A stretch of 64,000 bases of DNA from Candidatus Kapaibacterium sp. (GCA_046297095.1 JBKCNS010000051.1:9958-73957), one strand, 5' to 3'; counted from the first letter of the stretch, positions 12,860-37,701 are shown. Made by a program: numbers and translations. Notes: a model not told the origin generated them from the sequence alone.

Positions 12860-15019
12860 TTAGTGCGCAACGATGAACGTAGAGAAGAAGATTTTTTCCC
12901 CAACGCGAAGTCGTGCCGTGTACACGCCCGATGCCATCGATTGAACCGATAGCGGCATGGTATACGTTCCGGCGTCGGTAGTGCCCTGCACCGGTGCACT
13001 CACACATCTTCCCTGTTCATCCCAAATGTCCACGGCAACACGCGCGCTTTGATCTACCGTATAGCGCACACTCACAGTTTCGCTTCCCGTGGCAGGCTGC
13101 GGAAACACGGATATCGCAGGTGCATCACTTGTGCTTGCAGAGCTGTTGTTGTCCTGCACCGAAACAATAATGCTTCCTTGCGGCTTGATGCACAACAAGG
13201 TCTGATCTTCATCGATAATCATTGTGTCGGGAAGAAACGGTACGCGCACGGTAACCGTTTGCTCCAATGAATCATTGAGCAAAAGATAGTCGAAGGTATC
13301 ACTTGAGTATCGTGCATGGAATCGAAGCGGCACCGGCATTACAAACACCGGCGGAGCCGCACTCGTGGGACCGGATTTCTGATTGAAGCGCAGTACTACG
13401 TCTGCCTCGTCGCCAACACGCGTTACCGATTGTACGGTGGCCGTGTAGTAGGGATGGCCGGGGCTGTAAATCCACTGATCAAAAAATTGACGAAACGATA
13501 CCTTCGGATTCGGTACAAGCTCTTCCCACAACGCAACAAAGTCTTCAGTCTCTACAGACTGATATGCGAAACGTCGCATGTACTCTTTCATCACAGAAAA
13601 GTATGTGCTGTCTCCCACCAACGAACGCAGCATGGAATACACCCAACCGCCCTTCACATAGGTGGTGCCGTAATTGAAAAGATTGCTCAACTGCACACTA
13701 TAAATTCCCGGTTGCGCTGCGCCTTCATCATTACCGAAATACGATCTGTCACGGCGCTGAGCAAAGTCGGCGCGTGCAGCCTTTATTCCTCGCTCCTTCT
13801 CTATCCACAAAAACTCACCGTAGGTAGCGCCACCTTCGTTCAGCCATATATCGCTCCACGTGGCGCATGTAACCTTATCTCCGGTCCACTGGTGCATCAG
13901 CTCGTGTGCAACCACACCTTCCCAGCGATCTGTAAGAGCGCGGCGATTATACGTGGAGTTCGTTTGATGCTCCATTGCTCCGCTGAAGTACGGAAAGAGA
14001 ATAGTTTGAGCATAGGTATCGAAGGGATACTCTCCGTATAAACCGGAGAAACTCTCGAGCATGCGTACGGTGATCTCCTGCATCCAAACTAAATTCTCCG
14101 TAAAGCGCGCAGCATCCGTCACCCAAAGATATATGGGCGAGGAAACCACTTGCGTGCTGTCTGTAACACGTCGATACGGCTTGCCATCGTAACGTGCCCA
14201 CTTGGACGCGCACACCACCATCAGGTAGGTTGGGATAGGAGTTTTGTCTTTCCACTGATAGAGTTCACCATTGGGTACATTGTCGTATCGCACCAGGAGT
14301 CCATTAGAGCTAACGTTGTAACCAATCGGAACGATCACTGTAATCGATGAAATCGCTTTGTCATACGGGCGATCATTGCATGGCATCCACGCACGTGCAC
14401 CATTGGGCTGGCTCATTGTGTACGCAATATTGGCAAACACGGTATCCGGAGGAGTTCTGTTTCCAAAAGCACCGGCAGGAACAGCTACAAAACCATTATA
14501 GTCGCCGGGGTTCGACGTACTGACATTGGTATAATGAACTGCAAGTGTAAGCGTATCACCCACACCCCGCGTGCCAACGGCAATATCTACCGTGCCGTTT
14601 GTTTGCTTGTAGTCTTTTCCCGCAAGAACGCCGTTCACAAAGGCCGAGTCAATACGCAGATCGCGCACATCCAAGGTGATAGCCGTTGTATTCGCAGAGT
14701 CTATTCTCACTCGAATAGTATTAACTCCTGTATATGCACGCGATCCTGCTCCCGTCCGGGTAAGAGGCGTGCGCCAGTCCATGAGCAAATCGTACGTCAG
14801 CACATCATACGGACGGCGCACAATAGCAGATGGTCGCCGTGACTGCAGAGACGGCCACGCGCCACGAGCACGGGCTTGATGCTCATGCATGGCATGCTCA
14901 TCCGTTGGAGAGAGCTTTCCTTCGCCCTGCAAAAGAACATCGGGAATGGTTTGCGCTCCGGCATGCACAGCGCCAAGTATCAAAACAATCAGAAGAACAG
15001 CTTTCATGATCAATCGCAT
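12860..15019 (-). CDS. M1 family aminopeptidase with T9SS CTD
   Basis: 719 aa. Signal peptide, GAMEH, HELMHQW (HEXXH) with downstream WLNEG, YVKGGWV; CTD VFPQP...ASGVYTARL. Confidence 0.92.
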   Translation of the reverse strand: MRLIMKAVLLIVLILGAVHAGAQTIPDVLLQGEGKLSPTDEHAMHEHQARARGAWPSLQSRRPSAIVRRPYDVLTYDLLMDWRTPLTRTGAGSRAYTGVNTIRVRIDSANTTAITLDVRDLRIDSAFVNGVLAGKDYKQTNGTVDIAVGTRGVGDTLTLAVHYTNVSTSNPGDYNGFVAVPAGAFGNRTPPDTVFANIAYTMSQPNGARAWMPCNDRPYDKAISSITVIVPIGYNVSSNGLLVRYDNVPNGELYQWKDKTPIPTYLMVVCASKWARYDGKPYRRVTDSTQVVSSPIYLWVTDAARFTENLVWMQEITVRMLESFSGLYGEYPFDTYAQTILFPYFSGAMEHQTNSTYNRRALTDRWEGVVAHELMHQWTGDKVTCATWSDIWLNEGGATYGEFLWIEKERGIKAARADFAQRRDRSYFGNDEGAAQPGIYSVQLSNLFNYGTTYVKGGWVYSMLRSLVGDSTYFSVMKEYMRRFAYQSVETEDFVALWEELVPNPKVSFRQFFDQWIYSPGHPYYTATVQSVTRVGDEADVVLRFNQKSGPTSAAPPVFVMPVPLRFHARYSSDTFDYLLLNDSLEQTVTVRVPFLPDTMIIDEDQTLLCIKPQGSIIVSVQDNNSSASTSDAPAISVFPQPATGSETVSVRYTVDQSARVAVDIWDEQGRCVSAPVQGTTDAGTYTMPLSVQSMASGVYTARLRVGEKIFFSTFIVAH

Positions 15020-15107
15020 CTCAATCGCGTCTATTAGGTATCAAAAATATTTCTTGAAACATACCGATCAGCGCTTACAAACGCAGGCCGTACACACTGT
15101 ACAACAG

Positions 15108-15515
15108 CTATTCGGCAGCCGAAGCTTTCTTGTAAAACATAGCGCCTCGGATGGCAAAAATCAACGACAGTACACCTGTTTCCGTTTGCAGCAAATCTTC
15201 CAACGACGGCCTCATGCCTTGAGCATACACCTGAATGGAATGAATAGCTGCAGGCAGTTCAATGAGTACAGCAAGTGTGGTAACTGCAAGGGCAGCTTGA
15301 AGTGCCTTATGCTTGAGTTTGTCCGACACACTCATCACAGCAAATGCAAAGAGCACCAATCCGCATACCAGCGGATGCAGAAACACCCAGCTGTGCACGG
15401 TGGGTGCAATCTTTTCCATTAGAGGAAGATTCAGCGAAGCAACCTTTGTGGAAGAAAATCCGTAGCCGCCCAGGATAAGGAACACAAAGCTGAGAATCAT
15501 GGAGAATGCTGTCAT
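15108..15515 (-). CDS. Hypothetical membrane protein (about 4 TM)
   Basis: 135 aa, strongly hydrophobic; a TATATTTG box on the minus strand (15553-15560) lies upstream. Confidence 0.6.
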   Translation of the reverse strand: MTAFSMILSFVFLILGGYGFSSTKVASLNLPLMEKIAPTVHSWVFLHPLVCGLVLFAFAVMSVSDKLKHKALQAALAVTTLAVLIELPAAIHSIQVYAQGMRPSLEDLLQTETGVLSLIFAIRGAMFYKKASAAE

Positions 15516-15624
15516 AGGCGATCAATGGTGAGACGGGAAGCACGTTGCCGTTCAAATATAGTTATTGTAAATTTGACCTGCCGTTCACCCGGCACCCAAG
15601 GGTTTCACCATCTACTCTACCACC

Positions 15625-16119
15625 ATGAGATTTCTTTCTTTGCTTTTGGTCAGCACCCTCCTGCTGGGGTTTTCTTCGTGCACTAATACAACAGAGTATC
15701 AGGCAGATCAACTCACCGTCAGCGAGGTTTCGGGTCAGCCGGGATTCGCGTGGTTCTCTCAGGAAGTTGGTCGTTATACTCCCAATGCCGCCGATGTTGC
15801 CGCTATTCGCTCTGCCTATGCAGCCGCGCCGTTTACCACCTATATGTACGTAAACCAAGCTTGTACCTGCAGCGGCACGCTATTGCATTTTCCCAGATTA
15901 TACAGCACTCTTAAGGCTGCCGGAGTGCCGGATTCGTCGATGGTTGTGTTCAACATGCTGAATGCCGCAACACCGCATCCGTACGCAGACAAATACCCGG
16001 TTCGCGTTTTGCCTACATTCTATTTTGTTCGTGGCGCGTCCAACGATTTTCGGCGAGTTGAGCCCCCCACCGACACTCTTACACGCATCGACTCGTTAGT
16101 AGCTTTCACATTGAAGTAG
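15625..16119 (+). CDS. Thioredoxin-fold-like lipoprotein
   Basis: 164 aa. Lipobox FSS-C, QACTCSG, FPRLY and cis-Pro-like LPTFYF; TAAATTTG box at 15568. Confidence 0.6.
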   Translation: MRFLSLLLVSTLLLGFSSCTNTTEYQADQLTVSEVSGQPGFAWFSQEVGRYTPNAADVAAIRSAYAAAPFTTYMYVNQACTCSGTLLHFPRLYSTLKAAGVPDSSMVVFNMLNAATPHPYADKYPVRVLPTFYFVRGASNDFRRVEPPTDTLTRIDSLVAFTLK

Positions 16120-21742: not shown

Positions 21743-21850
21743 TCATTCATCTTCCTAATCTTTTTATCATTCTTCTTCTTAATCTTCTTCCTAATCTTCT
21801 TATCAATCCTCTTATCAATCTTCTTATCAATCCTCTTCCTCTTCCTCCAC
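21743..21850 (-). repeat. Degenerate 12-bp tandem repeat at the 3' end of the ArnT-like gene
   Basis: Minus strand reads GAGGATTGATAA GAAGATTGATAA GAGGATTGATAA GAAGATTAG..., about 7-8 units. Confidence 0.85.
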
Positions 21851-23581
21851 GGAAAATGCTATGCGCGAATACACTACGTAGCGCTGTGTTTCTTTGCGCA
21901 TACGAGCGCGTTGCAGATTGAGCGAAGCGTGGCTATTGGCACCGCGAACAAACACGATGGGTTCATCTCTGCGCTCTGCTTGCGCGAGCGCAGAAGCATT
22001 GGCAGAGCTGTCGCTAGTAAGGCGCAGAACAGTGCATCCATAGGCGGGCCGCCAGGGCTGAGAATGCGTCCAGCCGGCCCAACCCTGCGTGTACCACGAT
22101 AGCTGTGGCACCAATGTATCGCCGGAAGCACCGCCGCCCGTATCGGCAGAACCATCAGGCGGTAACACCACAGTGAACAATCGCTGCTGCGACTGCTCCA
22201 GCCAGGCACCAACTTCTTTAGCGCCATCGCGCTCGCGGCGCGTGCTTGTGGTATTCAGCCACGCGCAGTGCAGCACGAGTATCACCGGCAGTACCATGCG
22301 CGTGCTTCGCATCATGGCGTTGTTCATTGATACTGCCGCGCCCGGCGAAATCAAACGCAGTATACCGGCCGAGAGAAACAACGCGATTATCGGCAGCATC
22401 ACCGGTGGGTATGCAGAGCTTGAGGAAGCGAGCCCCAAACCCGCGCCGTTAGCGGCGTTCAGGTCCGACACCTGCACAAGTCCAAGCAGGCGAAACACCA
22501 CCAGGAATACCATGAAAAGAAAGGCCGCGCTCAACACGCGCGACCGTACATACATTCGGAACACGTTGTAGCGATTGCTCACAGTAAGAATCACCAACGG
22601 CGGCAGAGCAAACACCACGCGGGTGGAGTCGCTAATAGGCAGAGCAAACAATGCCAGCGCGCCCATAGCCCACACGTGCAGTAGTTTATCGGATTCTTTG
22701 TAGGGTTGGAGGTCCTCGTCGGCACGCTTGGGACGCACATACATGATCACCGCAAGTAATGCCACCACAGCAAGCGGCTGCGAGATAAGCAGGTCGGTCA
22801 CAGACGTTGCTATTGCCTGCAGAGTAAAGGCATGCGCTGTATCCATCACCACGGAAGACGCGAGCATAGCGCGAAGCGCAAGCGAGCCCTGAACAATAAT
22901 CATATGTACGTACCAGCACAGTGCAATGGCAATGCCCACAAGGCCGCCCACTACTACCTGTGCAGACTCACGCCGGTGCGTGTAGAGCAGCAGCAACGTT
23001 GCCGCCGCGCCAATAACCACATCGAGAAGTAACGCGCAGCACACCGCCACTGCATATACGGCGCTCCAGGTGTAGCGCTCACGCATGTCGTAGGCATGCA
23101 CCGCACGTAGCACTGCCAGCACCGATAGCATAAAGAACACAACTGCAGGCACATCCGGCTGAGCGCTACGCGCAAAATGATTCCACATCAAGCTGCCCGC
23201 AAGCAGCACCGGAGCCGGCATGGCAGAAGATTCGCCAACAAAAAAAGCAGTGATATAGTACACCAGCACCAATGCTGCTACCCCACTGAGCACACTCCAC
23301 AAGCGTAGCATAAAAGGTTTGTTCCAGCCCGCGGTGCGCACGAACACAGACTCCGCCCATGCAAGCAGGGGCGCTTGCGTTGCGTTTGTCACGCCGCCGG
23401 GAGTGAAGGTAGACTGATCCGTCCACGCCTGTTTCTCGGCTGTTGCCTTGGCCCGGAACGCAACAATTGCTTCAGTGTGCGAAAGCTCCTTTGCGCCCAA
23501 TCCCAGGAACAGCAGCAGGCCGCAGGTAATAATGACAAGTATGATATTCTGACGTTGCACGTCCTCGTTTTCCGCGTACAT
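21827..23581 (-). CDS. ArnT/GT39-like polytopic membrane glycosyltransferase
   Basis: About 585 aa. LGLGAKELSHTEA (D/E acceptor motif), APLLAW, LRLWSVLSG, ARSAQPDVP and many TM segments. Confidence 0.75.
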   Translation of the reverse strand: MYAENEDVQRQNIILVIITCGLLLFLGLGAKELSHTEAIVAFRAKATAEKQAWTDQSTFTPGGVTNATQAPLLAWAESVFVRTAGWNKPFMLRLWSVLSGVAALVLVYYITAFFVGESSAMPAPVLLAGSLMWNHFARSAQPDVPAVVFFMLSVLAVLRAVHAYDMRERYTWSAVYAVAVCCALLLDVVIGAAATLLLLYTHRRESAQVVVGGLVGIAIALCWYVHMIIVQGSLALRAMLASSVVMDTAHAFTLQAIATSVTDLLISQPLAVVALLAVIMYVRPKRADEDLQPYKESDKLLHVWAMGALALFALPISDSTRVVFALPPLVILTVSNRYNVFRMYVRSRVLSAAFLFMVFLVVFRLLGLVQVSDLNAANGAGLGLASSSSAYPPVMLPIIALFLSAGILRLISPGAAVSMNNAMMRSTRMVLPVILVLHCAWLNTTSTRRERDGAKEVGAWLEQSQQRLFTVVLPPDGSADTGGGASGDTLVPQLSWYTQGWAGWTHSQPWRPAYGCTVLRLTSDSSANASALAQAERRDEPIVFVRGANSHASLNLQRARMRKETQRYVVYSRIAFSVEEEEED

Positions 23582-23616
23582 AGGCACCTTGCGCTTGCTT
23601 GTGTAATTTGGCGCAA

Positions 23617-23638
23617 ACTACAACCGAAGGTGCGTGAT
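23617..23638 (+). repeat. 22-bp direct repeat, left copy (ACTACAACCGAAGGTGCGTGAT)
   Basis: Identical to 27957-27978. Confidence 0.95.
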
Positions 23639-23780
23639 ACGGCGATCGCACAAAGGAATAACGAGTAACGAACGCCGGAGTTGTGCCTGAGTTGCGGCGA
23701 TGTTGTGGCGGTGTTGTGCAGGGACAGTATGCATGCTGTTCTCGTGCCATGAGCACTCCCGCTGAGGCGGCAGGCTTATG

Positions 23781-25718
23781 CTAGTACTCTCCTCCAATAG
23801 TACGAGCGTTGAGAGGCCCACGGAATACCGGCAAACGGGATGGTTTAGTGCCTAAGCCTGCGGTGTCTGTGAGTGCATTGATGAATGCAATCAAGTCGGA
23901 TCTGTCTTGACGCGAAAGCTCCAGACTGTCGAATGGAAGAGTCTGGTTCGGAACTGCCCAACCTATGCCCCTGCCTCCGCCACGTGCATAAAAATCGATA
24001 ACCTGTTCGAGTGAACCGTATGCTCCATTGTGAAAGTACGGTGCAGTAAGAGCACTGTTTCGCACAGTAGGGGTTTTGAATGAGTGACGATAGATATGAG
24101 AGTTCTCTCGACGTATACCGCCTGCTCGCCCGATGTCACTATCGGGCTTAGCATTTATAGTATCTACTGCGGCCGGAACTCCTAAAATTTCCGACTCACT
24201 TTCAACGAATCCGGGAGGAACATAGCCGGAGAATGTAGGGGCAAAGTGACAAGTGCCACACGCTGCTCTTCCCATAAAAAGATTCATTCCACTTCTCTCG
24301 CTTGTGGTAAGTGATACGGACTCACCACGCAGGTAGCGATCTACTCTGGAATTGAAGGAACGAAGAGTGGAGATATAAGCGCCAATTGCCAACCCTACGT
24401 TCGAGGCATCAATGACCGATTCGCCCCTACTGCCAAAAGCTGTTTCGAACATGGTCACATATTCGGGTGAGGTGCGCAAGCGATTCACCATTTCCAAAAG
24501 AGAAAATCCGAACTCGTCTTCATGAGTAACAACATGGGCTACAACATCATTTATTCTCTGAGCCCGAAGATCGTAGAAGAATCTTCGAGCAAACACGCTG
24601 TTGATGAGAGTAGGTGCATTTCTCTGAATTGACTTGCGGCCGCCAAGTGCCATGCTGGTAACCCGCGAGTCCGTGAAAGCAGCGTCCGGCCGATGGCACG
24701 ATGCGCATGAACGCTGATTATTCACGGAAAGTATCGGATCGAAAAACAGCGTTCTTCCCAGGTGAACAAGTGCGGGAGAATAGAGTTTGGGCGATAATCC
24801 GGCAGTTGCCGTGGCTATGAAAACGTCGTCCGAAAACATACTAGTTGCCCGAGGATTGAGCACTATTTGGCCTATCCCAGCTTCGTCGGCAAACTCAACG
24901 TAGAGTATATGCTGTATATGTACGATGGATGAGTACAGCGGATCTAAACAACCGCGAATCAGTTCCGCTCTGTCCAAGGAATCGAAGGCAAGTTTCATCC
25001 GTGACTGAGCATCTTCAATTCTGATTATTACGGAATCGATAACGGATGCGTCATTGCGTGACTCGCACCACGGACGGTAAGTAACGATGAGTGCACGAAA
25101 GGTGTTGAGAAAGGGAATATTGTCTTCAAGACTCTGCTCCGAAGCAGGGCGGTCGAAACCTGTGATACCTAAACTTGTCATTCGTAAAATCCCCGAGCGC
25201 ATACTCTCGAACATCATTCTATCAGTCCACGGAGCATTCCGTGCCAAGCTCATAGCCTGATGCATCGAGTTTGCGAATCTCCCGGAAAGATCCTGCAACA
25301 ATCGTGCGGATTCCGTATCAAGTGTGGTTTGCGCATATACTACTTCGTCCAATACTTGAAGGCCTTCGGGCTCAAGAACATCGATGAATGTAGACTTAGG
25401 ATCGAGCTTCGGAAGAGGAGCACCATTCAGGTACGAAGTAACCATACCTGGATCCAGATACTCCACAAGAAACTCACATGCTTTATACTCTCGGCGTGCC
25501 ATTTCCAGCGCTTCGCGAATCTTTTTTGTACTGTCTCCGGGGCGGGCGCTATTGCATGTTGCCAGAAACATGTCGGCGGCTTGCTCTGCACTCCGCGTAG
25601 CAGTTTGAATAATCTTTCGCTGATCGCTGCGGCGATCGTCGTGTACATCACTCACAAACGCAGTACAAAGTGCAGCTAAGGTTAGTATCAGCGTTGAACC
25701 GAGAATGAATTTGCTCAT
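23781..25718 (-). CDS. Di-haem cytochrome c peroxidase/MauG-family protein with N-terminal helical extension
   Basis: 645 aa. LGRTLFFDPILS, CASCH, RNAPTL, FYDLRA, CGTCH, FKTPTVRN and PYFHNG. Confidence 0.92.
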   Translation of the reverse strand: MSKFILGSTLILTLAALCTAFVSDVHDDRRSDQRKIIQTATRSAEQAADMFLATCNSARPGDSTKKIREALEMARREYKACEFLVEYLDPGMVTSYLNGAPLPKLDPKSTFIDVLEPEGLQVLDEVVYAQTTLDTESARLLQDLSGRFANSMHQAMSLARNAPWTDRMMFESMRSGILRMTSLGITGFDRPASEQSLEDNIPFLNTFRALIVTYRPWCESRNDASVIDSVIIRIEDAQSRMKLAFDSLDRAELIRGCLDPLYSSIVHIQHILYVEFADEAGIGQIVLNPRATSMFSDDVFIATATAGLSPKLYSPALVHLGRTLFFDPILSVNNQRSCASCHRPDAAFTDSRVTSMALGGRKSIQRNAPTLINSVFARRFFYDLRAQRINDVVAHVVTHEDEFGFSLLEMVNRLRTSPEYVTMFETAFGSRGESVIDASNVGLAIGAYISTLRSFNSRVDRYLRGESVSLTTSERSGMNLFMGRAACGTCHFAPTFSGYVPPGFVESESEILGVPAAVDTINAKPDSDIGRAGGIRRENSHIYRHSFKTPTVRNSALTAPYFHNGAYGSLEQVIDFYARGGGRGIGWAVPNQTLPFDSLELSRQDRSDLIAFINALTDTAGLGTKPSRLPVFRGPLNARTIGGEY

Positions 25719-25760
25719 TACCTATGCGGGGAATAGTAGAAAATGCCGGTTGGGTAATAC

Positions 25761-25796
25761 AAAAACAGGACCGAGGCCATAAGCGCATCGGTCCTG
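25761..25796 (-). terminator. Intrinsic terminator between phoX and the peroxidase gene
   Basis: Stem CAGGACCGA / TCGGTCCTG followed by TTTTT on the minus strand. Confidence 0.65.
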
Positions 25797-25816
25797 CATA
25801 CCGGTAAAAGCCGAGA

Positions 25817-27661
25817 TTATCTCATCACTACTACTTGTTGTGTTGTACCATCTGCAAATCGAACGTAATAAACGCCTGCAGCAACGTCGGATATGTCCAG
25901 GGACGAAGCTTGACGAACCACGCGAACTCTGTCACCGGTTGCATTATACAAGGCGGCATCCGACGGCGTTGAAAAGTTCAATTGCGTGGATGTGGGGTTC
26001 GGGTACACGGTTACAGCGACAGCGTTTCGCTCATCACTGTCTTTGTCTATAGAGTTAACCAGCTGCTTCAATCCCGACACAGCAAAGGTCAGTGAGTTTT
26101 TCGCCGCTGCATCACTGATCGTTGCATTATCAGGATGCTGCGAATTGATCAACACGGTATTGCCATCATCAAGCGAAGCAAATCCGGTAATCTCCGAGCC
26201 GTACGGCGAGATAGCCAAGCGATAGAGATTGTCGATTGTGGGTGCTTTGGTCATGTCTAACAGCCATGCTTCGCAGTTTGTGCCACGCATACCGGTGTTC
26301 GGCATTCTGCCAAAGCTTGTGCCATTAAGATCCTCTTCGATAACCATGAATGTTTTACCATTCACATAGAGAAATCCAAGACCATCCGGATTGGAAAGAT
26401 GTTTCTCAGGATACTTGCCGGGCACGGCCTGTGCGTCGGTGATGTACGGTCCGCCTTCGATAAATGAACGCACGGAGTTGTCGGTTAAATCAAGCACAAG
26501 AACACGACCATAATAATCAGTGTATGCGGTACTATCGAGCGCCACACCTTGCTCTTTTGCTCTGTCGTAAGCGTGCTGCGGAAGAGTCCATCCGTCTGCA
26601 ACGGCAGATTTGTAGCCGCTACCGGGGCGGTCCACGCCGGTTTCGGTGATGTAAATCTTGCCATCTGTTTTGTTGAATGCACCCCACTCAAGACGTGTAA
26701 ATCCGGTGATGCCTTGTGTTTTAGCCCAGTTGTGAGGAGCTACAAGTATGTCCCAGTTTTTTGCAGGATCATTCGGCACCTCTACCCACGAACCTGTAAA
26801 GCTTCCTTTGTTTTGCTTGTAGAAGTATGTTTTTCCTTTGGTGTAATCACCCGCAACATCTGCAACAAACTTGGTAAGAATGGAACGGCCTGCTGCGCCA
26901 TCTTCAAACAGAAAAATTGTTTTGCCATCGGGATGCACAACACCACCTTCAAAGCCTTGACGGCCCCAGTTATAGTACTTGCGAACAGCCTTGGCAGACT
27001 TCGGATCGATCTCGACCATCCAGTTAAGATTCTCGAAGCGCTTAATCACTTTGCCATCCAAACCCGGAAATCCGGAAGCAACTTTCGAACCGATCACAAA
27101 GTCACTTGTGTCGCGAAAACCCTTGCCATCCGAGTTTATCATCTTGTTGTTTGTTTGGTACCACTCCTCGGCAGTCCACACACGGCCAAATCCGGACATA
27201 CCGCCGCAATTCATACCCGTTTCGCCAACAGTGTTTTTGAAGTCTACATTGAAAAACTTGCCCTTGCGGCCATCGGCCAATGTTTGCTCAAGAACCTCAA
27301 GAGATCCGTCGGCTTTTTTACCGAGCTTGAACATGGTCATCCCACCACCGTCGCCAATTTTGTCGTTGGCTTCAATCATTTCGTGATTAACAATGAAGTA
27401 ACCCATCGATGATCCGGACTCGTCGGCAGCATAACCTATATAGTCATGCCACTGTTTGGCCAGTGTACGTCCTGTGCCTGTCTCCACGGAGTCAACTCCA
27501 CCAACGAAAATGTTCTGATACTTCAAAGGAGACGGTGGAACAACCACTCTACCTTGCAGATACGGTATCATAGTTACCGGCTCGATCTTCACAGGAAAAT
27601 CCTGCGCGCTTACACTACTCGTTGCCATTACAGCAGCGGCAAACAGACCCAAAACCTTCAT
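25817..27661 (-). CDS. phoX: PhoX-family (DUF839) alkaline phosphatase with T9SS CTD
   Basis: 614 aa. Signal peptide, VNHE, NCGGM, WTAEE, GWMVEIDP-like (NWMVEIDP), WGRQGFEG, RLEWG, NPDGL, EED, GSEITG, SQHP; CTD VYPNPT...AAGVYYVR. Confidence 0.85.
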   Translation of the reverse strand: MKVLGLFAAAVMATSSVSAQDFPVKIEPVTMIPYLQGRVVVPPSPLKYQNIFVGGVDSVETGTGRTLAKQWHDYIGYAADESGSSMGYFIVNHEMIEANDKIGDGGGMTMFKLGKKADGSLEVLEQTLADGRKGKFFNVDFKNTVGETGMNCGGMSGFGRVWTAEEWYQTNNKMINSDGKGFRDTSDFVIGSKVASGFPGLDGKVIKRFENLNWMVEIDPKSAKAVRKYYNWGRQGFEGGVVHPDGKTIFLFEDGAAGRSILTKFVADVAGDYTKGKTYFYKQNKGSFTGSWVEVPNDPAKNWDILVAPHNWAKTQGITGFTRLEWGAFNKTDGKIYITETGVDRPGSGYKSAVADGWTLPQHAYDRAKEQGVALDSTAYTDYYGRVLVLDLTDNSVRSFIEGGPYITDAQAVPGKYPEKHLSNPDGLGFLYVNGKTFMVIEEDLNGTSFGRMPNTGMRGTNCEAWLLDMTKAPTIDNLYRLAISPYGSEITGFASLDDGNTVLINSQHPDNATISDAAAKNSLTFAVSGLKQLVNSIDKDSDERNAVAVTVYPNPTSTQLNFSTPSDAALYNATGDRVRVVRQASSLDISDVAAGVYYVRFADGTTQQVVVMR

Positions 27662-27727
27662 TTGTCACTCCCTGAAATTGATTGAAAAAAATTCCGATTG
27701 CTACGGGAGGCAAACTCCGGCTTGCAC

Positions 27728-27754
27728 GTAACCTCAGGGTAAACTCTTCGTTAC
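27728..27754 (-). promoter_or_regulatory. Candidate Pho-box-like site (three pentamers at 11-bp period)
   Basis: Minus strand GTAAC-N6-TTTAC-N6-GTTAC, 67-93 bp upstream of the phoX start. Confidence 0.35.
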
Positions 27755-27956
27755 CAAATCCGGGCATAGTATTACCTATTGAAAAAACCACCATCGGATC
27801 TTTTTTTAAACGTGCTAGGCGCACCGGATTGTGTGCACGTGATTCACTCGTCCCTGTAGGTAACATCGACGGTGCGGAATGCTGCAGTGTAGAAACAGCA
27901 GATGCGTCTGGATCAAACAGGGCTTTCCTCCCTGCAGCGTTCGTATTTTGTTTTGT

Positions 27957-27978
27957 ACTACAACCGAAGGTGCGTGAT
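27957..27978 (+). repeat. 22-bp direct repeat, right copy, running into the plsY start codon
   Basis: Identical to 23617-23638; its last two bases are the AT of ATG 27977. Confidence 0.95.
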
Positions 27979-28618
27979 GAACATTGATATTCTCCCCGTC
28001 GTGGCTGCGTTGGCTGCCTACCTTGTGGGCTGCTTTCCCAGCTCCTATCTCTTTGTACGCCTTGCGTCCGGAAAAAATGTTCTGCACGAGGGCACCGGCA
28101 ACATGGGCGGCATGAATAGCTACGAAGTAACCGGCAAGCGCAGGGTGGGAATTGCTGTTGCCCTGTTTGATGCGGCAAAGGGCGCGCTGGTATGCTGGGG
28201 TGCGCATGCTCTGGGAGCAACGCCTACAGTGGTTGCCTACTCTGCCGTTGCAGTGGTATTGGGCCACTGTTACAATGTGTTTTTTAGGTTTCGCGGTGGG
28301 CGCGGCATTGCCACAGCCGCAGGCGTTGGTGCGGTCATCAATCCCTTGCCCTTGCTGCTGTGGGCCTTGATGTACCTGACGGGGTACTATGTGATTCGGC
28401 GGGATATCCATGTGGGGAGCATCACCGGAATACTCGGACTGCTTGTGCTTACCTACACCACGCCCACCACACTGCTGAGCTTAACGATGCTAATGACACC
28501 CTTTGATGTGGGCTTGCTCAAAGGTGTGATCTACATGATGTGTATGATTATGTTCTTGCGCCACATCGAACCAATGCGCGCACTGTTCGAGCGCATGCAA
28601 AACGACATCTCTGAGTAG
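27977..28618 (+). CDS. plsY: Glycerol-3-phosphate acyltransferase PlsY
   Basis: AYLVGCFPSSY, GTGNMGGMNSY, FDAAKG, GHCYNVFFRFRGGRGIATAAG and RHIE. Confidence 0.93.
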   Translation: MNIDILPVVAALAAYLVGCFPSSYLFVRLASGKNVLHEGTGNMGGMNSYEVTGKRRVGIAVALFDAAKGALVCWGAHALGATPTVVAYSAVAVVLGHCYNVFFRFRGGRGIATAAGVGAVINPLPLLLWALMYLTGYYVIRRDIHVGSITGILGLLVLTYTTPTTLLSLTMLMTPFDVGLLKGVIYMMCMIMFLRHIEPMRALFERMQNDISE

Positions 28619-30270: not shown

Positions 30271-30312
30271 TCTTCAGAGATTCATCTTCAGAAATTCATC
30301 TTCAGAAATTCA
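30271..30312 (+). repeat. 14-bp tandem repeat x3 upstream of dnaX
   Basis: TCTTCAGAGATTCA TCTTCAGAAATTCA TCTTCAGAAATTCA. Confidence 0.9.
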
Positions 30313-32227: not shown

Positions 32228-32279
32228 GAATGCTGCCTGAGTATGTGCAGGTGTTTGCAGGTAGTTGCAAACAATCAGC

Positions 32280-33350
32280 TCACCCTTCGGTGCACGATCG
32301 CATATACTCGTGCACGCAGGCGCGCAAGCCTTCCTCGAAGGGTATGGCTGCCTTCCAACCCAGTTTGGCAGCGCGGGAAACCGACAGGCATTTAGACGGC
32401 ACACCATCGGGCTTTGAGCGGTCGTACGCAAGGCTTCCGGCGAAGCCCACCATATCGGCAATGCGCTGAGCTACATCGCGCAGCGTTAGGTCCATACCGG
32501 TACCGATGTTCACCAGTTCTCCGGCATATCCGGCCGAAACATTATTCATAAAGTGCAGTGCCGCTGCAGCCACATCGTCTGCATGAAGAAACTCGCGCCG
32601 CACCAGGCCACTACCCCATAGCACTACTGCATCGGCGGTGATACCCCGCTCGGCCAATAATGCAACGGCTTCGTTATCGGTAAAGCGTTGCGACTTCAGC
32701 ACACCAAAGCCTACGTCTCGCTGTGCAAGGTCTCGCTGTATAGACGCAAAGTCCCGCTTCGCAAGCAGTGCTGCGAGCGTGAACTTGCGTATCAGTGCCG
32801 GCAATGCGTGTGATGTTTCCAAATTGTAGTTGTCGTTCGGGCCATACAGATTGGTGGGCATCAACGACAAATAATCGGTGCCGTATTGCTCGTTGTAATA
32901 CTGACACATTTTCACACCGGCAATCTTTGCAATGGCATAGGGTTCGTTTGTGTGCTCCAGCCGGCCCGTAAGGAGCATGTCTTCCGTCATAGGCTGAGCG
33001 GCGCGGCGCGGATAAATGCACGACGATCCTAGGTTCACCAGCTTACGCACACCCGAACGCCGTGCAGCTTCAATCACATTCGTGGTGATCATGATATTCT
33101 GATACATGAACTCACCGCGATAGGTGGCATTGGCATAAATACCCCCAACTTTCGCAGCAGCAAGAAACACGTACTCCGGCTTCTCCCGCTCAAAGAACTC
33201 TGTGACATCGGCTTGGTTCAGAAGGTCCAGCCGGGCATGCGGTACGCACAGCGTATTGGCGTAACCCTTGGCATGAAGCAGGCGGGTAATGGCACTGCCC
33301 ACCAAACCACTGTGGCCGGCAATGTATATGCGGGAATCGGCGTTCATCAT
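32280..33350 (-). CDS. fcl: GDP-L-fucose synthase
   Basis: IYIAGHSGLVGSA, AAAKVGGIYAN, LGSSCIYP, YAIAK, PTNLYGPNDN and WGSG..RREFLH. Confidence 0.95.
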   Translation of the reverse strand: MMNADSRIYIAGHSGLVGSAITRLLHAKGYANTLCVPHARLDLLNQADVTEFFEREKPEYVFLAAAKVGGIYANATYRGEFMYQNIMITTNVIEAARRSGVRKLVNLGSSCIYPRRAAQPMTEDMLLTGRLEHTNEPYAIAKIAGVKMCQYYNEQYGTDYLSLMPTNLYGPNDNYNLETSHALPALIRKFTLAALLAKRDFASIQRDLAQRDVGFGVLKSQRFTDNEAVALLAERGITADAVVLWGSGLVRREFLHADDVAAAALHFMNNVSAGYAGELVNIGTGMDLTLRDVAQRIADMVGFAGSLAYDRSKPDGVPSKCLSVSRAAKLGWKAAIPFEEGLRACVHEYMRSCTEG

Positions 33351-33578
33351 GATTCAAGGATAGGAAAAAAATCAACACGTTCTGAGGTACCTGAGCCAAT
33401 TAGCCGATGTGAGAGTACGGCATCGGGCCCGCCGGCATCGGTTCATGCTCACGCGGGGTTTTTGTAAGTTGCACCAACAAGGATTGTGAAAGGCAGGCAT
33501 TGGACATAAGCCGCAGCGGCATTTGCAAAGAACAGCAGTATTGTACCTAAACATCGGTACCTTCCGCGGGAACACGTC

Positions 33579-35861
33579 ATGGTAGTGACAAGTCAGGATA
33601 TACTTCGCGAATGCACCGCAGCGCTGGAAACTCTGCGGGAGGACTCATCCGTTGCCGATCTTCGGGCGCACGTTCTGGCGTTGCTTGCGTTATCCAAGTC
33701 GCATTTGCTTCCGCCGCATCAGCAGTCTCTTACTGCACTGGGAAGCAATCTTAATACCGCGCTCAGCTCTCTGGAGCGCATGGATCCTTTGCTTCGAAAC
33801 ATCAGCACGTTAATCTCGTTCGAGAACCTTCCGGATGGAAGGCCCATAGAGCCAACACTTCTCAAGGCGGCCATTGCAGCGGTATCATCCGTACGCACCG
33901 ACGATGCCTTGCTTATCTCTCGTGCTGCCGAGGCCTTCTGCTTTCAGCATGCCACCATTGAAGAATCGTTTTTTCTGAATCCGCTCTTACTGCGCCTGAT
34001 ACCCTTGCATGGAAGTGCATCGGTGCTGGACATGCAATGCGGCTCGGGGCTGCGAGCTGTGCAGGCACAGCGGCGCGTATTCGAGAGCAGTTCAGGAACA
34101 TCGCTTGCACGTGCATTGCGCTGCTCACTGGAAGAAGACGACAGAGATGCCGAGTGCAGAGCTCGTCTGCTGGCGTATTTGTGTGGCCTTACGGCTACGA
34201 TGTCGCCATCGGGAACAGCTCTGGCTCCAAGCATGAATTCGCAGCGTGAGTTCGATCGCATGTTTGTGGAAACTCGAGACCGCGTGCCCGATATCGCAGG
34301 CGTACTGCGGCGAATGGGCGAGCATACCATTTGCGCGCTTATACTTTCGGACATCGCAGCCGGATGCATGACAAAGAAAGATTTGTCGTTGCTTCTGGAC
34401 CGCGATGTGCTTGATTGCGTTGTTACTCTGCGCAGCGGCGTGCGCGCGCCATGGCACGTGATGATACTTCGCGGACGCAAGCCGGTGGAGCGTAGGCATC
34501 GCGTGTTGTTCTACGATCATATCGATCCCTTCGACGGCCCGGGTATCGATGCCTTGAGTGCAGAGACCATTGCCGAGGCCTGTGAACGATTCAGCTCTGC
34601 AGGGCGCCATTGCCGCGTGTTGCATCGCAACGATGTGGTGGCACTCGGCGATCATACCGACATCGTGCACGATGTGCATATAGGCACAACACCCGAACCC
34701 TCGGCCGTGCTTGGTTCAGCTGAATTCCATGAGCTCGACGACCGCATGCGCATGCGGGGATTTGATGTGCACTCGCTGTTTCGATTCAATGCCCGCGATG
34801 CCGTGTACGAGCCGCTGATAGCAGACCGGCGCTTGCTTCGCATTGCCGTGGCTTCCGCTCCGGCACTGAAGAACGCAGAGGTACGCACGCACTACTCCTT
34901 TGCCGTGTGGTGGAGCATGACGGCCCCGCTGCTTGGCATTGCCGACGCGGGCATTAGTGAATTGCACGACACCTTCGAGCGAGATATCAGCAAAGAAGGC
35001 GTGCTTATGCCACGTCAAGCACGGGCAATTTTCCGCGAGTGGTGGTGGGAGATCGATGATGATCGCACGGTATTGTCGCTGTACGGAGCGTCGGTAGTAG
35101 CTCACACATGGATGGATGCCTTACTTGCCCAAGCCGAGCGCAAGGGAACGAACTTCTGGTTTGAGTTGGATGTATCAAGCAGAACACTGCTGGAGTTTTT
35201 GTGCCCGGACTTAGTGCGTAAACTGGTGCGGCACGACGAGCAGGCCGAGTCTTTACTGCGCAGTATTGATGAGCTTGCAGAACAAGCGCCGCGAAATCTT
35301 GCCGAGCTTATGGTGCGCCGCCGCGAAGAATATGTAACGGCAAACATTCCCCGCTCGCGCATGTTCGAGACCGCAGCTATGGAGCGTATGGCAGAACTGA
35401 AGGCCGTGGTACATAGTATCAAGGCACGCATGAACAGCCTGCATGCCCAAGCAAAGGAGCATCGCACGGACGAACATCGCACCACGCAGTTCGACGACAC
35501 TACTTCCCTGCAAGACAGTGTTGGTGCGCTTCTTACGCAAATCGTGCCTGCGCAAAGCGAAATGAAACTGCTGGAGAAATCCTTGGCGCCGGTGGTGAAT
35601 CTGCAACGCAAGCGCGACCGCGAGCTTATGGCGTTGCAGGAGTTCAGCAGTCAGTTGCTTCCGGACTTACGCATGGTACGGAGCACCTTCTCGCCGCGTA
35701 ATGCGCGCTCGCTTGTACAGTTGCAATTCCGAGATGCGTTGTCCAGACGCCTTGAGGCAGCCATTGTGGCAAACCGCGATGCAATCATCTACGACTTAGA
35801 ACAAGTGTGGCATCGCTTCGATGAGGCCGCTGCTTTATCGGCAGTGGAAGTAGCCGAGTAG
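33579..35861 (+). CDS. Degenerate type I restriction-modification M-subunit (HsdM)-like protein
   Basis: 760 aa. HsdM_N-like start, motif I VLDMQCGSG, FDRMFVETRD in place of FD....NPPF, DVLDCVVTL...ILRGRKP..RRHRVLFYD, and C-terminal AVWW / FREWW helices of long-form HsdM. Confidence 0.7.
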   Translation: MVVTSQDILRECTAALETLREDSSVADLRAHVLALLALSKSHLLPPHQQSLTALGSNLNTALSSLERMDPLLRNISTLISFENLPDGRPIEPTLLKAAIAAVSSVRTDDALLISRAAEAFCFQHATIEESFFLNPLLLRLIPLHGSASVLDMQCGSGLRAVQAQRRVFESSSGTSLARALRCSLEEDDRDAECRARLLAYLCGLTATMSPSGTALAPSMNSQREFDRMFVETRDRVPDIAGVLRRMGEHTICALILSDIAAGCMTKKDLSLLLDRDVLDCVVTLRSGVRAPWHVMILRGRKPVERRHRVLFYDHIDPFDGPGIDALSAETIAEACERFSSAGRHCRVLHRNDVVALGDHTDIVHDVHIGTTPEPSAVLGSAEFHELDDRMRMRGFDVHSLFRFNARDAVYEPLIADRRLLRIAVASAPALKNAEVRTHYSFAVWWSMTAPLLGIADAGISELHDTFERDISKEGVLMPRQARAIFREWWWEIDDDRTVLSLYGASVVAHTWMDALLAQAERKGTNFWFELDVSSRTLLEFLCPDLVRKLVRHDEQAESLLRSIDELAEQAPRNLAELMVRRREEYVTANIPRSRMFETAAMERMAELKAVVHSIKARMNSLHAQAKEHRTDEHRTTQFDDTTSLQDSVGALLTQIVPAQSEMKLLEKSLAPVVNLQRKRDRELMALQEFSSQLLPDLRMVRSTFSPRNARSLVQLQFRDALSRRLEAAIVANRDAIIYDLEQVWHRFDEAAALSAVEVAE

Positions 35862-35904
35862 TATAGACCCCGATTAGAGACCACTCCGGTAAATCGAGCC
35901 TGCG

Positions 35905-36462
35905 TCAATCTTCGCCGCGCACTAAGGCTTCCGCGCGCTGCAGCGTAGCACCAAGATCGTCGTTCACAATCACCTCGTCGAACTCGTGGCGAAACGACAT
36001 CTCCATTTCCGCGCGCTCCAAACGAACGCGAAGCTGATCTTCGCTTTCGGTGCTGCGCGAACGCAACCGAGATTCCAGAATAGTAAGGTCTGGCGGTGCA
36101 ATGAACACCAGCAGTGTATCCTCCGGGAAGGCACGGCGCAGAGACAGCGCGCCTTTCACATCAACATCAAAAAGTATAGTCTCGCCCGCATCAATTGCCC
36201 GTTGTACTTCTGAACGCAATGTGCCATAAAGATTACCGAAGATCTCCTCGTACTCGATCATGTCTCCCGAACCCACACGATCCACAAACTCCTGACGTGT
36301 CAGAAAAAAATAATCGCGACCGTGTTCTTCGTTCGGGCGCTTGGTGCGTGTGGTGGCCGAAATACTGAAACGCCAATCGGGATGAACCGAAAGCAAATGC
36401 CGCGCTACCGTGGTTTTACCGGCGCCGCTGGGTGCAGAAAGTACAATGAGATTTTTTCGCAC
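35905..36462 (-). CDS. gmk: Guanylate kinase
   Basis: SAPSGAGKTT, FSISATTR.KRPNEEHGRDYFF, YGT and DVDVKGA. Confidence 0.97.
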   Translation of the reverse strand: MRKNLIVLSAPSGAGKTTVARHLLSVHPDWRFSISATTRTKRPNEEHGRDYFFLTRQEFVDRVGSGDMIEYEEIFGNLYGTLRSEVQRAIDAGETILFDVDVKGALSLRRAFPEDTLLVFIAPPDLTILESRLRSRSTESEDQLRVRLERAEMEMSFRHEFDEVIVNDDLGATLQRAEALVRGED

Positions 36463-36607
36463 GCGAAGTCCTCTTGGCAGGAATAACAGTAGTACCTCAA
36501 TCCTGCTTGCGCAGGAATGGAGTGGTTGATGATTTGTTTACAATACGTTGGTGCTAGTGTCGATGCTTGCACGTACCCGGCGCTGTCGGCGTTGATGCCG
36601 GCACACA

Positions 36608-37480
36608 CTACTCGATGTTTTGCACTTGCTCGCGAATACGCTCCAGCTCGTCTTTCACGGCCACAACCATGCGGGCAATGGTAGCGTCGTTGGCTTTGGA
36701 ACCAATGGTATTGATCTCGCGATTCATTTCCTGCAGCATGAAGTTCATTTGACGGCCGTTGCCTTCGCCGGTTCTCATGGCATCGTTCATAAACTTCATG
36801 TGGCTGCGCAGGCGCACACATTCTTCGGAGATATCCAGCTTGTCTGCAAGCAATACAATCTCCAGCTGCAAGCGCTGCTCATCAATTTCATCAGACTCGA
36901 ACAACTGTGCTACTCGGGCACGCAAGCGCTCGCGCTCTTCGGGAATTCTCTTCATTCCCATTTCCTCTACCTTGTCCAGAGTTTCTTCGATGGTCTTCAA
37001 GCGCTCGCGCATGTCGCGGAGAATTTCTTTGCCTTCGTTTTTCTGCATGGTATCCAGCGAGGCCAACGCCGATTGAATTGCTTTGGCAGCAATCTTCCAT
37101 TGCATTTCTGTTTCTTTTTCGTCGTCGTCTTCCTGGCTCATCACATCGGGAATGCCAAGCAGATCGGCCATAGAAACCGGTGTGGAGATATTCAGCTTCG
37201 AGCGCAAACTTTCCAGTGAGCGATAATACGCTTCGGCCTTCTGCGCATTTACCACAGAGTGTGTTTTGGATTCGGACTCCACCTTCAAGAACAGCGATAC
37301 CGAACCGCGCTCCAGCGATTTCTTCACCATATCACGAAGCTCGGCTTCCTTGTGCTGTAGATGCTTCGGCATCTTGCAGGAGAGCTCTAAATAGCGTCCG
37401 TTCACGCTGCGAATTTCTACGTTGACACTTACACCGTGTTCGTTGATCTGGGCTTTGCTAAACCCGGTCATGCTTTTCAT
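36608..37480 (-). CDS. yicC: YicC/YloC family endoribonuclease
   Basis: MKSMTGF, EIRSVNGRYLE, DISEECVRL, FMLQEMNREINTIGSK and REQVQNIE; TATCTTTG box at 37572-37579 on the minus strand. Confidence 0.95.
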   Translation of the reverse strand: MKSMTGFSKAQINEHGVSVNVEIRSVNGRYLELSCKMPKHLQHKEAELRDMVKKSLERGSVSLFLKVESESKTHSVVNAQKAEAYYRSLESLRSKLNISTPVSMADLLGIPDVMSQEDDDEKETEMQWKIAAKAIQSALASLDTMQKNEGKEILRDMRERLKTIEETLDKVEEMGMKRIPEERERLRARVAQLFESDEIDEQRLQLEIVLLADKLDISEECVRLRSHMKFMNDAMRTGEGNGRQMNFMLQEMNREINTIGSKANDATIARMVVAVKDELERIREQVQNIE

Positions 37481-37701
37481 ATTCTCTTCTCTGTATGGTA
37501 GCTCTGAATGATAGCCCCGGATGATAACTCCGGATGAAAGACTATGCCGCCGCAACTGCGGCGCGCGTTTGCAAAGATACAAAGCGCATCCCTAGTGGCT
37601 TTGGCGGGCTTTGGATTTAGCCTGCGTAGCCCGCCGGGTACGCCATGCTGCGAACAGGCACGGCGTGTATATTTTGCGTCGCTTCAATAACCGGGGATTT
37701 T

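Follow-up and report, generated by a model that had tools for sequence, protein, structure and literature searches.

The window analysed here is a stretch of 64,000 nucleotides (nt) from Candidatus Kapaibacterium sp. (GCA_046297095.1 JBKCNS010000051.1:9958-73957). The element in question is a two-gene module located between plsY, which encodes a glycerol-3-phosphate acyltransferase, and a divergently oriented gene for an ArnT-like membrane glycosyltransferase. The module consists of a PhoX-like gene and a gene for a di-haem enzyme, and it is bounded by two copies of the 22-mer ACTACAACCGAAGGTGCGTGAT at positions 23617-23638 and 27957-27978. On balance, we favour the view that the module is a long-term resident of the divergent ArnT/plsY promoter region, that it is bounded by a duplicated plsY leader and that recombination at this place produced an insertion or deletion (indel). 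The locus is a case of ordinary repeat-bounded gene gain or loss, which is documented unusually cleanly, and not a new mobile element. The features of the locus are the following:

21827-23587, minus strand: ArnT-like membrane glycosyltransferase of the PMT_2 family (Pfam PF13231, E 2.9e-08), divergent from plsY
23604-23620: predicted overlapping divergent promoter boxes, TAATTTG on the plus strand (23604-23610) for plsY and TAGTTTG on the minus strand (23620-23614) for the ArnT-like gene
23617-23638, plus strand: left 22-mer copy, the putative ancestral plsY leader beside the old promoter, followed by ACGGCG and the module
23639-23780: spacer from the left 22-mer to the stop codon of the di-haem gene, whose opening bases ACGGCGA form a junction that is common to two relatives discussed below (L002 and the L009 relic) in the alignment
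23781-25718, minus strand: di-haem bCCP/MauG/MbnH-like enzyme of 645 amino acids (PF03150, E 6e-44), on the ArnT side
25719-25816, minus strand: intergenic region with a terminator-like hairpin 3' of the PhoX-like gene, AGGACCGA...TCGGTCCT followed by TTTTTG, read by eye
25817-27661, minus strand: PhoX-family (DUF839) beta-propeller protein of 614 amino acids (PF05787), on the plsY side
27662-27956: intergenic region between the PhoX-like gene and plsY, with a TATTTTG box (27944-27950) that precedes the right copy by 6 nt, as the box of the left copy does
27957-27978, plus strand: right 22-mer copy, the putative working plsY leader, whose final two bases are the AT of the plsY start codon (ATG 27977-27979)
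27977-28618, plus strand: plsY (PF02660, E 3.6e-30), whose product is 98% identical to that of the sister genome L001

The window holds no third copy of the 22-mer, even when up to three mismatches are tolerated, and a matching repeat was found in none of 100 shuffled sequences. The two copies lie 4340 bp apart from start to start, and both edges are sharp, with no extension of the identity on either side. They enclose exactly two large genes, which are both encoded on the minus strand. The GC content of the two module genes is 0.490 compared to 0.541 and 0.551 in the flanks, and their GC content at third codon positions (GC3) of 0.46 and 0.50 is the lowest and third lowest among the 35 open reading frames (ORFs) of the window (mean 0.576, standard deviation 0.043). 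An earlier sequence-only reading had reported the repeat, the two enclosed genes, an AT-richer interior and the lack of an integrase or transposase inside; repeat counts, base composition, the Pfam scan and further domain scans bear out all four, and its expectation that the 22-mer is not a common motif holds within the window. An Rfam scan returned no match to an RNA family, a consensus scan for sigma-70 promoters and terminators gave a signal at chance level, and the hairpin between the two module genes was not listed in the consensus terminator scan.

A query with PlsY against the genome collection returned seven loci, the members of the window's 90% PlsY cluster carry the name Candidatus Kapaibacterium, and sequences of the window's lineage are present in many freshwater and lake metagenomes. 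The metagenome-assembled genome (MAG) L001, which represents a sister lineage, is colinear with the window (95.7% identity up to 23638 and 96.8% from 27957 on), and its two matches to the window overlap by exactly one 22-mer, ACTACAACCGAAGGTGCGTCAT, reading ...GTCAT. Contigs of four independent runs of the sister lineage reproduce this empty junction: position 23616 is joined to 27957, 4340 bp are skipped and 19 nt of the joint fit either side. No copy of the module with at least 90% identity was found elsewhere in the same four runs. In L001 and these runs, the shorter allele thus equals the two flanks joined by a single repeat, without any gain or loss of sequence. The sequence-only reading had anticipated both an empty site with a single 22-mer, which is present in L001 and the four runs, and a compact divergent pair of the ArnT-like gene and plsY after removal of one repeat, which is seen in L001. 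The occupied form was recovered from 12 runs of the window's lineage and from one JGI contig; the empty joint was not found in the contigs of these 12 runs, and contigs drop rare variants. Among the raw reads of one run, X21, none came from this organism. All 12 runs of the window's lineage are thus occupied and all four of the sister lineage empty, and no mixed population was seen. A metagenome scan for the 22-mer returned one contig, L008, with the occupied left junction. The window and its relatives are metagenome assemblies, which might suggest that the repeat is an artefact of assembly or otherwise a chance match; the negative shuffles, together with the independent recovery of both occupied junctions in more than 10 runs and of the empty form in four, make this explanation practically negligible.

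The nature of the 22-mer can be deduced from relatives in which the ArnT-like gene lies directly beside plsY. These genomes share a TA(n)TTT-type box, the sequence GCGCAA, a 20-nt leader opening with ACTACRAC and the ATG, and the spacing of box, 6 nt, 20 nt and ATG is equal in L001, L009, L022/L023 and L003, the last of which has a PlsY protein with 59% identity. The sequence GCGCAAACTACRAC is kept across all of these genomes, and the promoter block GCGCAAACTAC is conserved in L001, L009, L022 and L003. From box to leader, the sequence reads TAATTTGGCGCAAACTACAACCGAAGGTGCGTCATG in L001, TATTTT(A/G)GCGCAAACTACGACCGGAGCCCTGTCATG in L009, L022 and L023, and TATATTTCGCGCAAACTACAACGGAAGATCCTACATG in L003; L004 and L024 also have an empty-type site, with more diverged leaders. 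Since the same leader precedes plsY in relatives without the insert, the 22-mer is the 5' leader of plsY itself. The sequence-only reading had named plsY as an unusual integration target, but the repeat represents the leader of this gene in what looks like a shared divergent promoter region, and not coding sequence.

The opposite strand of CAAACTA reads TAGTTTG and precedes the start codon of the ArnT-like gene by 26 nt; the ArnT/plsY interval thus looks like a pair of overlapping divergent promoters. Boxes of the type TA(n)nTTTG were found five times in the 80 nt upstream of the window's ORFs compared to about 0.7 expected, which is a modest enrichment. The ArnT-like gene adjoins the plsY locus in all relatives examined. 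The leader would begin approximately where transcription starts, 6 nt downstream of a Bacteroidota-type -7 box, would end with the AT of the start codon and would be part of a divergent promoter region of about 50 bp, which is common to both genes. In the occupied arrangement, the left copy would stay with the old promoter and the upstream region of the ArnT-like gene, and the right copy would serve plsY behind a new box provided by the module side. An RNA-mediated origin, prompted by the fact that the repeat opens at the predicted transcription start, was set aside, as there is no supporting evidence.

The same module is found at the same site in more distant relatives. L002 (Ca. Kapaibacterium EUL_269, PlsY 73% identical) and five Logan contigs of this species (L010-L014) carry genes for DHODH, the ArnT-like protein, the di-haem enzyme, the PhoX-like protein and PlsY in the order and orientation of the window. 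L002 has no boundary repeats and no right-hand copy of the 22-mer; plsY of the L002 type is preceded by an unrelated leader behind a perfect TAACTTTG box. Beside the ArnT-like gene, a decayed promoter and leader, GTGCAATCTACGACC...GGTGAGAC, can be recognized, and it is followed by CCGGCGAAC, which matches ACGGCGATC after the left copy of the window. The first bases past the left copy are ACGGCGA in the window, CCGGCGA in L002 and ACGGCGG in a relic found in L009. Between the PhoX-like gene and plsY (27662-27956), the PhoX-proximal half aligns with L002, and the final 41 nt are an insertion relative to L002.

In the PhoX tree, the proteins of the window and L002 are sisters with a support of 100/97. 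Synonymous divergence (dS) between the window and L002 is saturated for the module and the flanks alike; dating of the module by dS was therefore ruled out. Third-position identity is 0.35-0.41 for the module and 0.38-0.43 for the flanks. The dip in GC content is also present in L002 (0.567 for the module compared to 0.60-0.61), and the GC3 of the module has shifted with that of the host in both lineages. The shared site, the sister relationship of the PhoX-like proteins, the saturated dS, the shared left junction and the recurring GC dip together indicate that the module was resident before the lineages split. The GC dip is not recent, since it recurs in L002, and the cassette insertion proposed in the sequence-only reading is not supported by these results as a recent foreign event. 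The module would rather have been at this site for a long time in the Kapaibacterium clade and would have been inherited vertically.

Searches for signs of mobility gave negative results. Pfam and NCBIfam scans of every large ORF between 20403 and 32227 revealed no tyrosine or serine recombinase, and neither an integrase nor a transposase domain was found within the interval or next to it. The module ends lack terminal inverted repeats, and by inspection, no dyad symmetry or inverted arms were seen in the 22-mer and its flanks, and neither an RYYYAAC/GTTRRRY core pair nor an attC-like palindrome at either end. Xer/dif-like and integron attC-like sites were rejected due to the lack of dyad symmetry, and a transposon or insertion sequence with target-site duplication was rejected due to the lack of a transposase and of terminal inverted repeats. 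Unlike an integron gene cassette, the unit comprises two genes and its own intergenic promoter region. The locus resembles integrase-mediated genomic islands with attL and attR sites in its direct repeats at both ends, the one-copy empty site and the lower GC content inside; however, it has no integrase or dyad-symmetric core in the scanned interval, the target is a promoter-leader region and not a tRNA or gene end, and a relative carries the same genes at the same site without a second repeat.

L009 (PlsY 77% identical) has an empty-type ArnT/plsY site. The start of the L009 contig (1-700) contains the 3' end of the di-haem gene and a promoter and leader relic followed by ACGGCG, and this segment, in inverted orientation, adjoins codon ~437 of the ArnT-like gene, with a 7-nt microhomology, GTACCAT, at the joint. 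L009 is the third lineage with the same leader-to-module junction. This would fit a site-specific recombinase encoded elsewhere that uses the 22-mer as an att-like core, with the module as an excisable cassette for which the plsY leader is a recurrent target: the empty site is precise, the module adjoins a leader copy in three lineages with like first bases beyond it, and in L009 the di-haem gene and the leader relic lie inverted elsewhere, inside the ArnT-like gene, where the relic is similar in its 3' half to the leader of L009 itself (AGC..CCTGT). However, the relic contains promoter sequence beyond the 22-mer, which means that the 22-mer does not delimit the piece that moved. Furthermore, the ArnT-like gene is intact at this place in L022 and L023, two 98%-identical MAGs (L009 1-700 compared to L022 1-160), and the L009 junction is thus either strain-specific or an assembly chimera. 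Considering also that the interval and its neighbourhood contain no recombinase, the lack of symmetry in the 22-mer and of inverted repeats at the module ends, the absence of a right-hand site in L002 and the fact that other genomic contexts share the coding regions only, an att-like core is very unlikely. A broader version, in which a recombinase acting in trans or a leader-targeted cassette lets the module repeatedly leave and re-enter the plsY 5' leader across lineages, and in which either the host leader is duplicated each time or the copies are kept alike by short-patch conversion within the bounds of the transcribed leader, is improbable as well. Of the two routes offered in the sequence-only reading, homology-driven recombination at the repeat fits the data, whereas a site-specific, trans-excisable element lacks support, given that there is no recombinase nearby, that dyad symmetry is missing and that the ends are not conserved in other contexts.

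Sequence variation among strains sheds light on the history of the two copies. Base 20 of the left copy (23636) is G in all occupied strains seen. At base 20 of the right copy (27976), X5, X10, X12 and X16 carry C, and the window, X3, X6, X8, X13 and X14 carry G; C is also found at this variable leader base in L001 and in the outgroups L009 and L003. It can be concluded from this pattern that the older form of the repeat matched at 21 of 22 positions. The perfect repeat described in the sequence-only reading is thus true of the window and the five runs with G but not of the four runs with C, and it is, judging from these alleles, a later state in part of the lineage, which arose through mutation or through conversion templated by the left copy. 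The left copy has been preserved, together with its upstream promoter, as well as the working counterpart in L001. In both flanks, occupied strains, for example X10 and X16, have a large number of alleles in common with the sister lineage; the two lineages therefore recombine, and single-nucleotide polymorphisms in the flanks cannot root the indel.

The difference between the window and its sister of about 96% identity would be a precise indel of 4340 bp, which could have arisen via recombination between the leader copies or via allelic replacement through the flanking genes. The likelier direction is a loss in the sister lineage, which would restore the ancestral order of promoter, leader and ATG exactly. 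The removal of insertions via transformation is a published idea (PMC4795794). The locus shares with short-repeat deletion, or curing by import of an empty allele, that two direct repeats bound a variable segment, that the shorter allele keeps one of them and has the ancestral arrangement restored, and that the module has no machinery of its own. It differs from these processes in that the repeat is a putatively functional leader within a divergent promoter, of which each copy plausibly serves another neighbour, and in that the origin of the leader duplication and the near-identity of the copies are not explained by them.

Several observations weigh against long residence followed by loss. As L002 lacks the right-hand copy, the duplication of the leader may postdate the original insertion. 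Lineages differ in the 3' half of the leader (GTGCGT in the window, CCCTGT in L009 and ATCCTA in L003), yet this half is identical between the two copies of the window; an ancient duplication would thus need later homogenisation, which is possible by gene conversion or if both copies were refreshed from empty alleles up to the end of homology. Diversity among occupied strains is about 0.4% in the module compared to 1.7-2.2% in the adjacent 300 bp on each side, which could likewise result from a more recent arrival or from a sweep. In GC3, the module falls short by about 0.13 in the window and by about 0.07 in L002. Moreover, the tree does not resolve the branching order of the window and L001, L009 and L002 lineages, and the parsimony case for loss is therefore not strong. 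The missing right copy in L002, the low diversity and the larger GC3 deficit lean towards a re-formation of the arrangement but are not decisive.

The opposite direction would be a gain in the window's lineage, in which the module returned to an L001-like empty site from a donor that carried it, either a relative or a conspecific. Homology in the ArnT-like gene and the leader could have anchored the integration, with an illegitimate joint immediately before the leader of the recipient; alternatively, a circular copy could have entered through one crossover within the leader. The recipient's 22-mer would be duplicated either way. A gain would account for the identity of the copies at 21-22 of 22 positions in a leader part that varies between lineages, for a left copy and upstream promoter as intact as those of L001, for the two sharp repeat edges, for a module diversity below that of the flanks, for a GC3 deficit exceeding that of L002 and for the 41 additional nt before plsY. 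Homology-facilitated illegitimate recombination has already been described (PMC3240628); its abstract reports the integration of small linear DNA and does not mention target duplications. In this process, which occurs during natural transformation, one junction lies at the end of the homology (here, the leader), the other one requires no homology and DNA is added without a recombinase, but the present segment comprises 4.3 kb, and 22 bp are duplicated. However, no donor lineage is known. Sequences in the PhoX cluster of the window's lineage differ at no more than two residues, and the next relatives are 86-89% identical. In addition, occupancy strictly follows lineage, the illegitimate joint would have to fall exactly at the leader start and the GC3 of the module tracks that of the host in both lineages. 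A gain is therefore possible but rather unlikely, and a loss from a long-occupied site is the direction we prefer.

Both proteins encoded by the module could be assigned to families. The PhoX-like protein matches PF05787 with 61.6 bits (cut-off 24) over residues 145-511 and possesses a Sec signal peptide and a C-terminal sorting domain of the type IX secretion system (T9SS; PF18962 and TIGR04183, residues 552-609). It shares with the PhoX alkaline phosphatase of Pseudomonas fluorescens (PDB 3zwu/4amf) a PhoX domain above the Pfam gathering threshold; it differs in its weak similarity to the solved PhoX (E 0.003) and in its predicted export via the T9SS. A role of the module in phosphate scavenging is plausible.

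The di-haem protein has two CXXCH motifs (residues 338 and 487) and a strong CCP_MauG match, as is typical for bacterial di-haem peroxidases and MauG/MbnH enzymes, but differs from these by an additional N-terminal region of about 316 amino acids, which has no family match. Its N-terminus is signal- or lipoprotein-like. The equivalog models for MbnH and MauG (TIGR04039 and TIGR03791) match below their cut-offs, and 6e1c is the best solved structure (E 1e-33). The enzyme appears closest to MbnH/MauG-like and bCCP enzymes, and the equivalog scores leave the subfamily undecided. MauG-family enzymes modify partner proteins, and it can be speculated that the di-haem enzyme might mature the PhoX-like protein.

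The module is transcribed in situ, since metatranscriptome contigs of one study (runs X45-X48) cover the PhoX-like gene from 25832 to 27564 with zero differences and part of the di-haem gene (24790-25420); neither the ArnT-like gene nor plsY is covered by contigs of these runs. Other Kapabacteria and Ignavibacteria likewise carry the two module genes side by side, in at least two further genomic contexts. In L016, L017 and L019-L021, the PhoX-like gene is followed by a di-haem gene with the N-terminal extra region of about 316 amino acids; L018 is cut within the downstream gene. In the other context examined (L016), only the coding regions are alike and the cassette ends are not conserved, which argues for a functional unit and not for a defined mobile unit.

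Further features were observed in the neighbourhood. At 21747-21842, 12-nt units of the TCTTCTTCCTAA type follow one another in a run that abuts and slightly overlaps the 3' end of the ArnT-like gene; the repeat search scored it as six overlapping 36-nt copies in 12-nt steps. A second difference from the sister lineage lies at 32230-33566, where an NAD-dependent epimerase/dehydratase gene (32280-33350, minus strand; GDP-fucose-synthase-like) is located between dnaX and an HsdM-like gene. At this site, L001 has roughly 300 bp of unrelated intergenic DNA instead, the gene is likewise missing from L002 and L009, and no flanking repeat was seen. The segments 13631-16118 and 33566-38077 are 77% and 85% identical to L001, compared to 96-97% for the DNA between them, which suggests allelic replacement from more distant relatives and a mosaic locus. 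Three tandem 14-nt units, TCTTCAGARATTCA, are present at 30271-30312 inside the ORF called dnaX, and DnaX is 91.5% identical to its L001 counterpart, compared to 97-98% for the neighbouring proteins.

The locus provides a clean natural example of an accessory module, plausibly for nutrient scavenging, inside what appears to be the shared promoter of two housekeeping genes, and the presence of the downstream gene's leader on both sides makes precise loss or regain possible. It also shows that a perfect flanking repeat, an empty site and a GC dip alone do not indicate a recent insertion or a mobile element, as a distant relative carries these genes at the corresponding site and the repeat belongs to the host gene as its leader. 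One widespread freshwater lineage carries the PhoX-like gene and its closest sister does not, and these lineages may thus differ in phosphorus acquisition.

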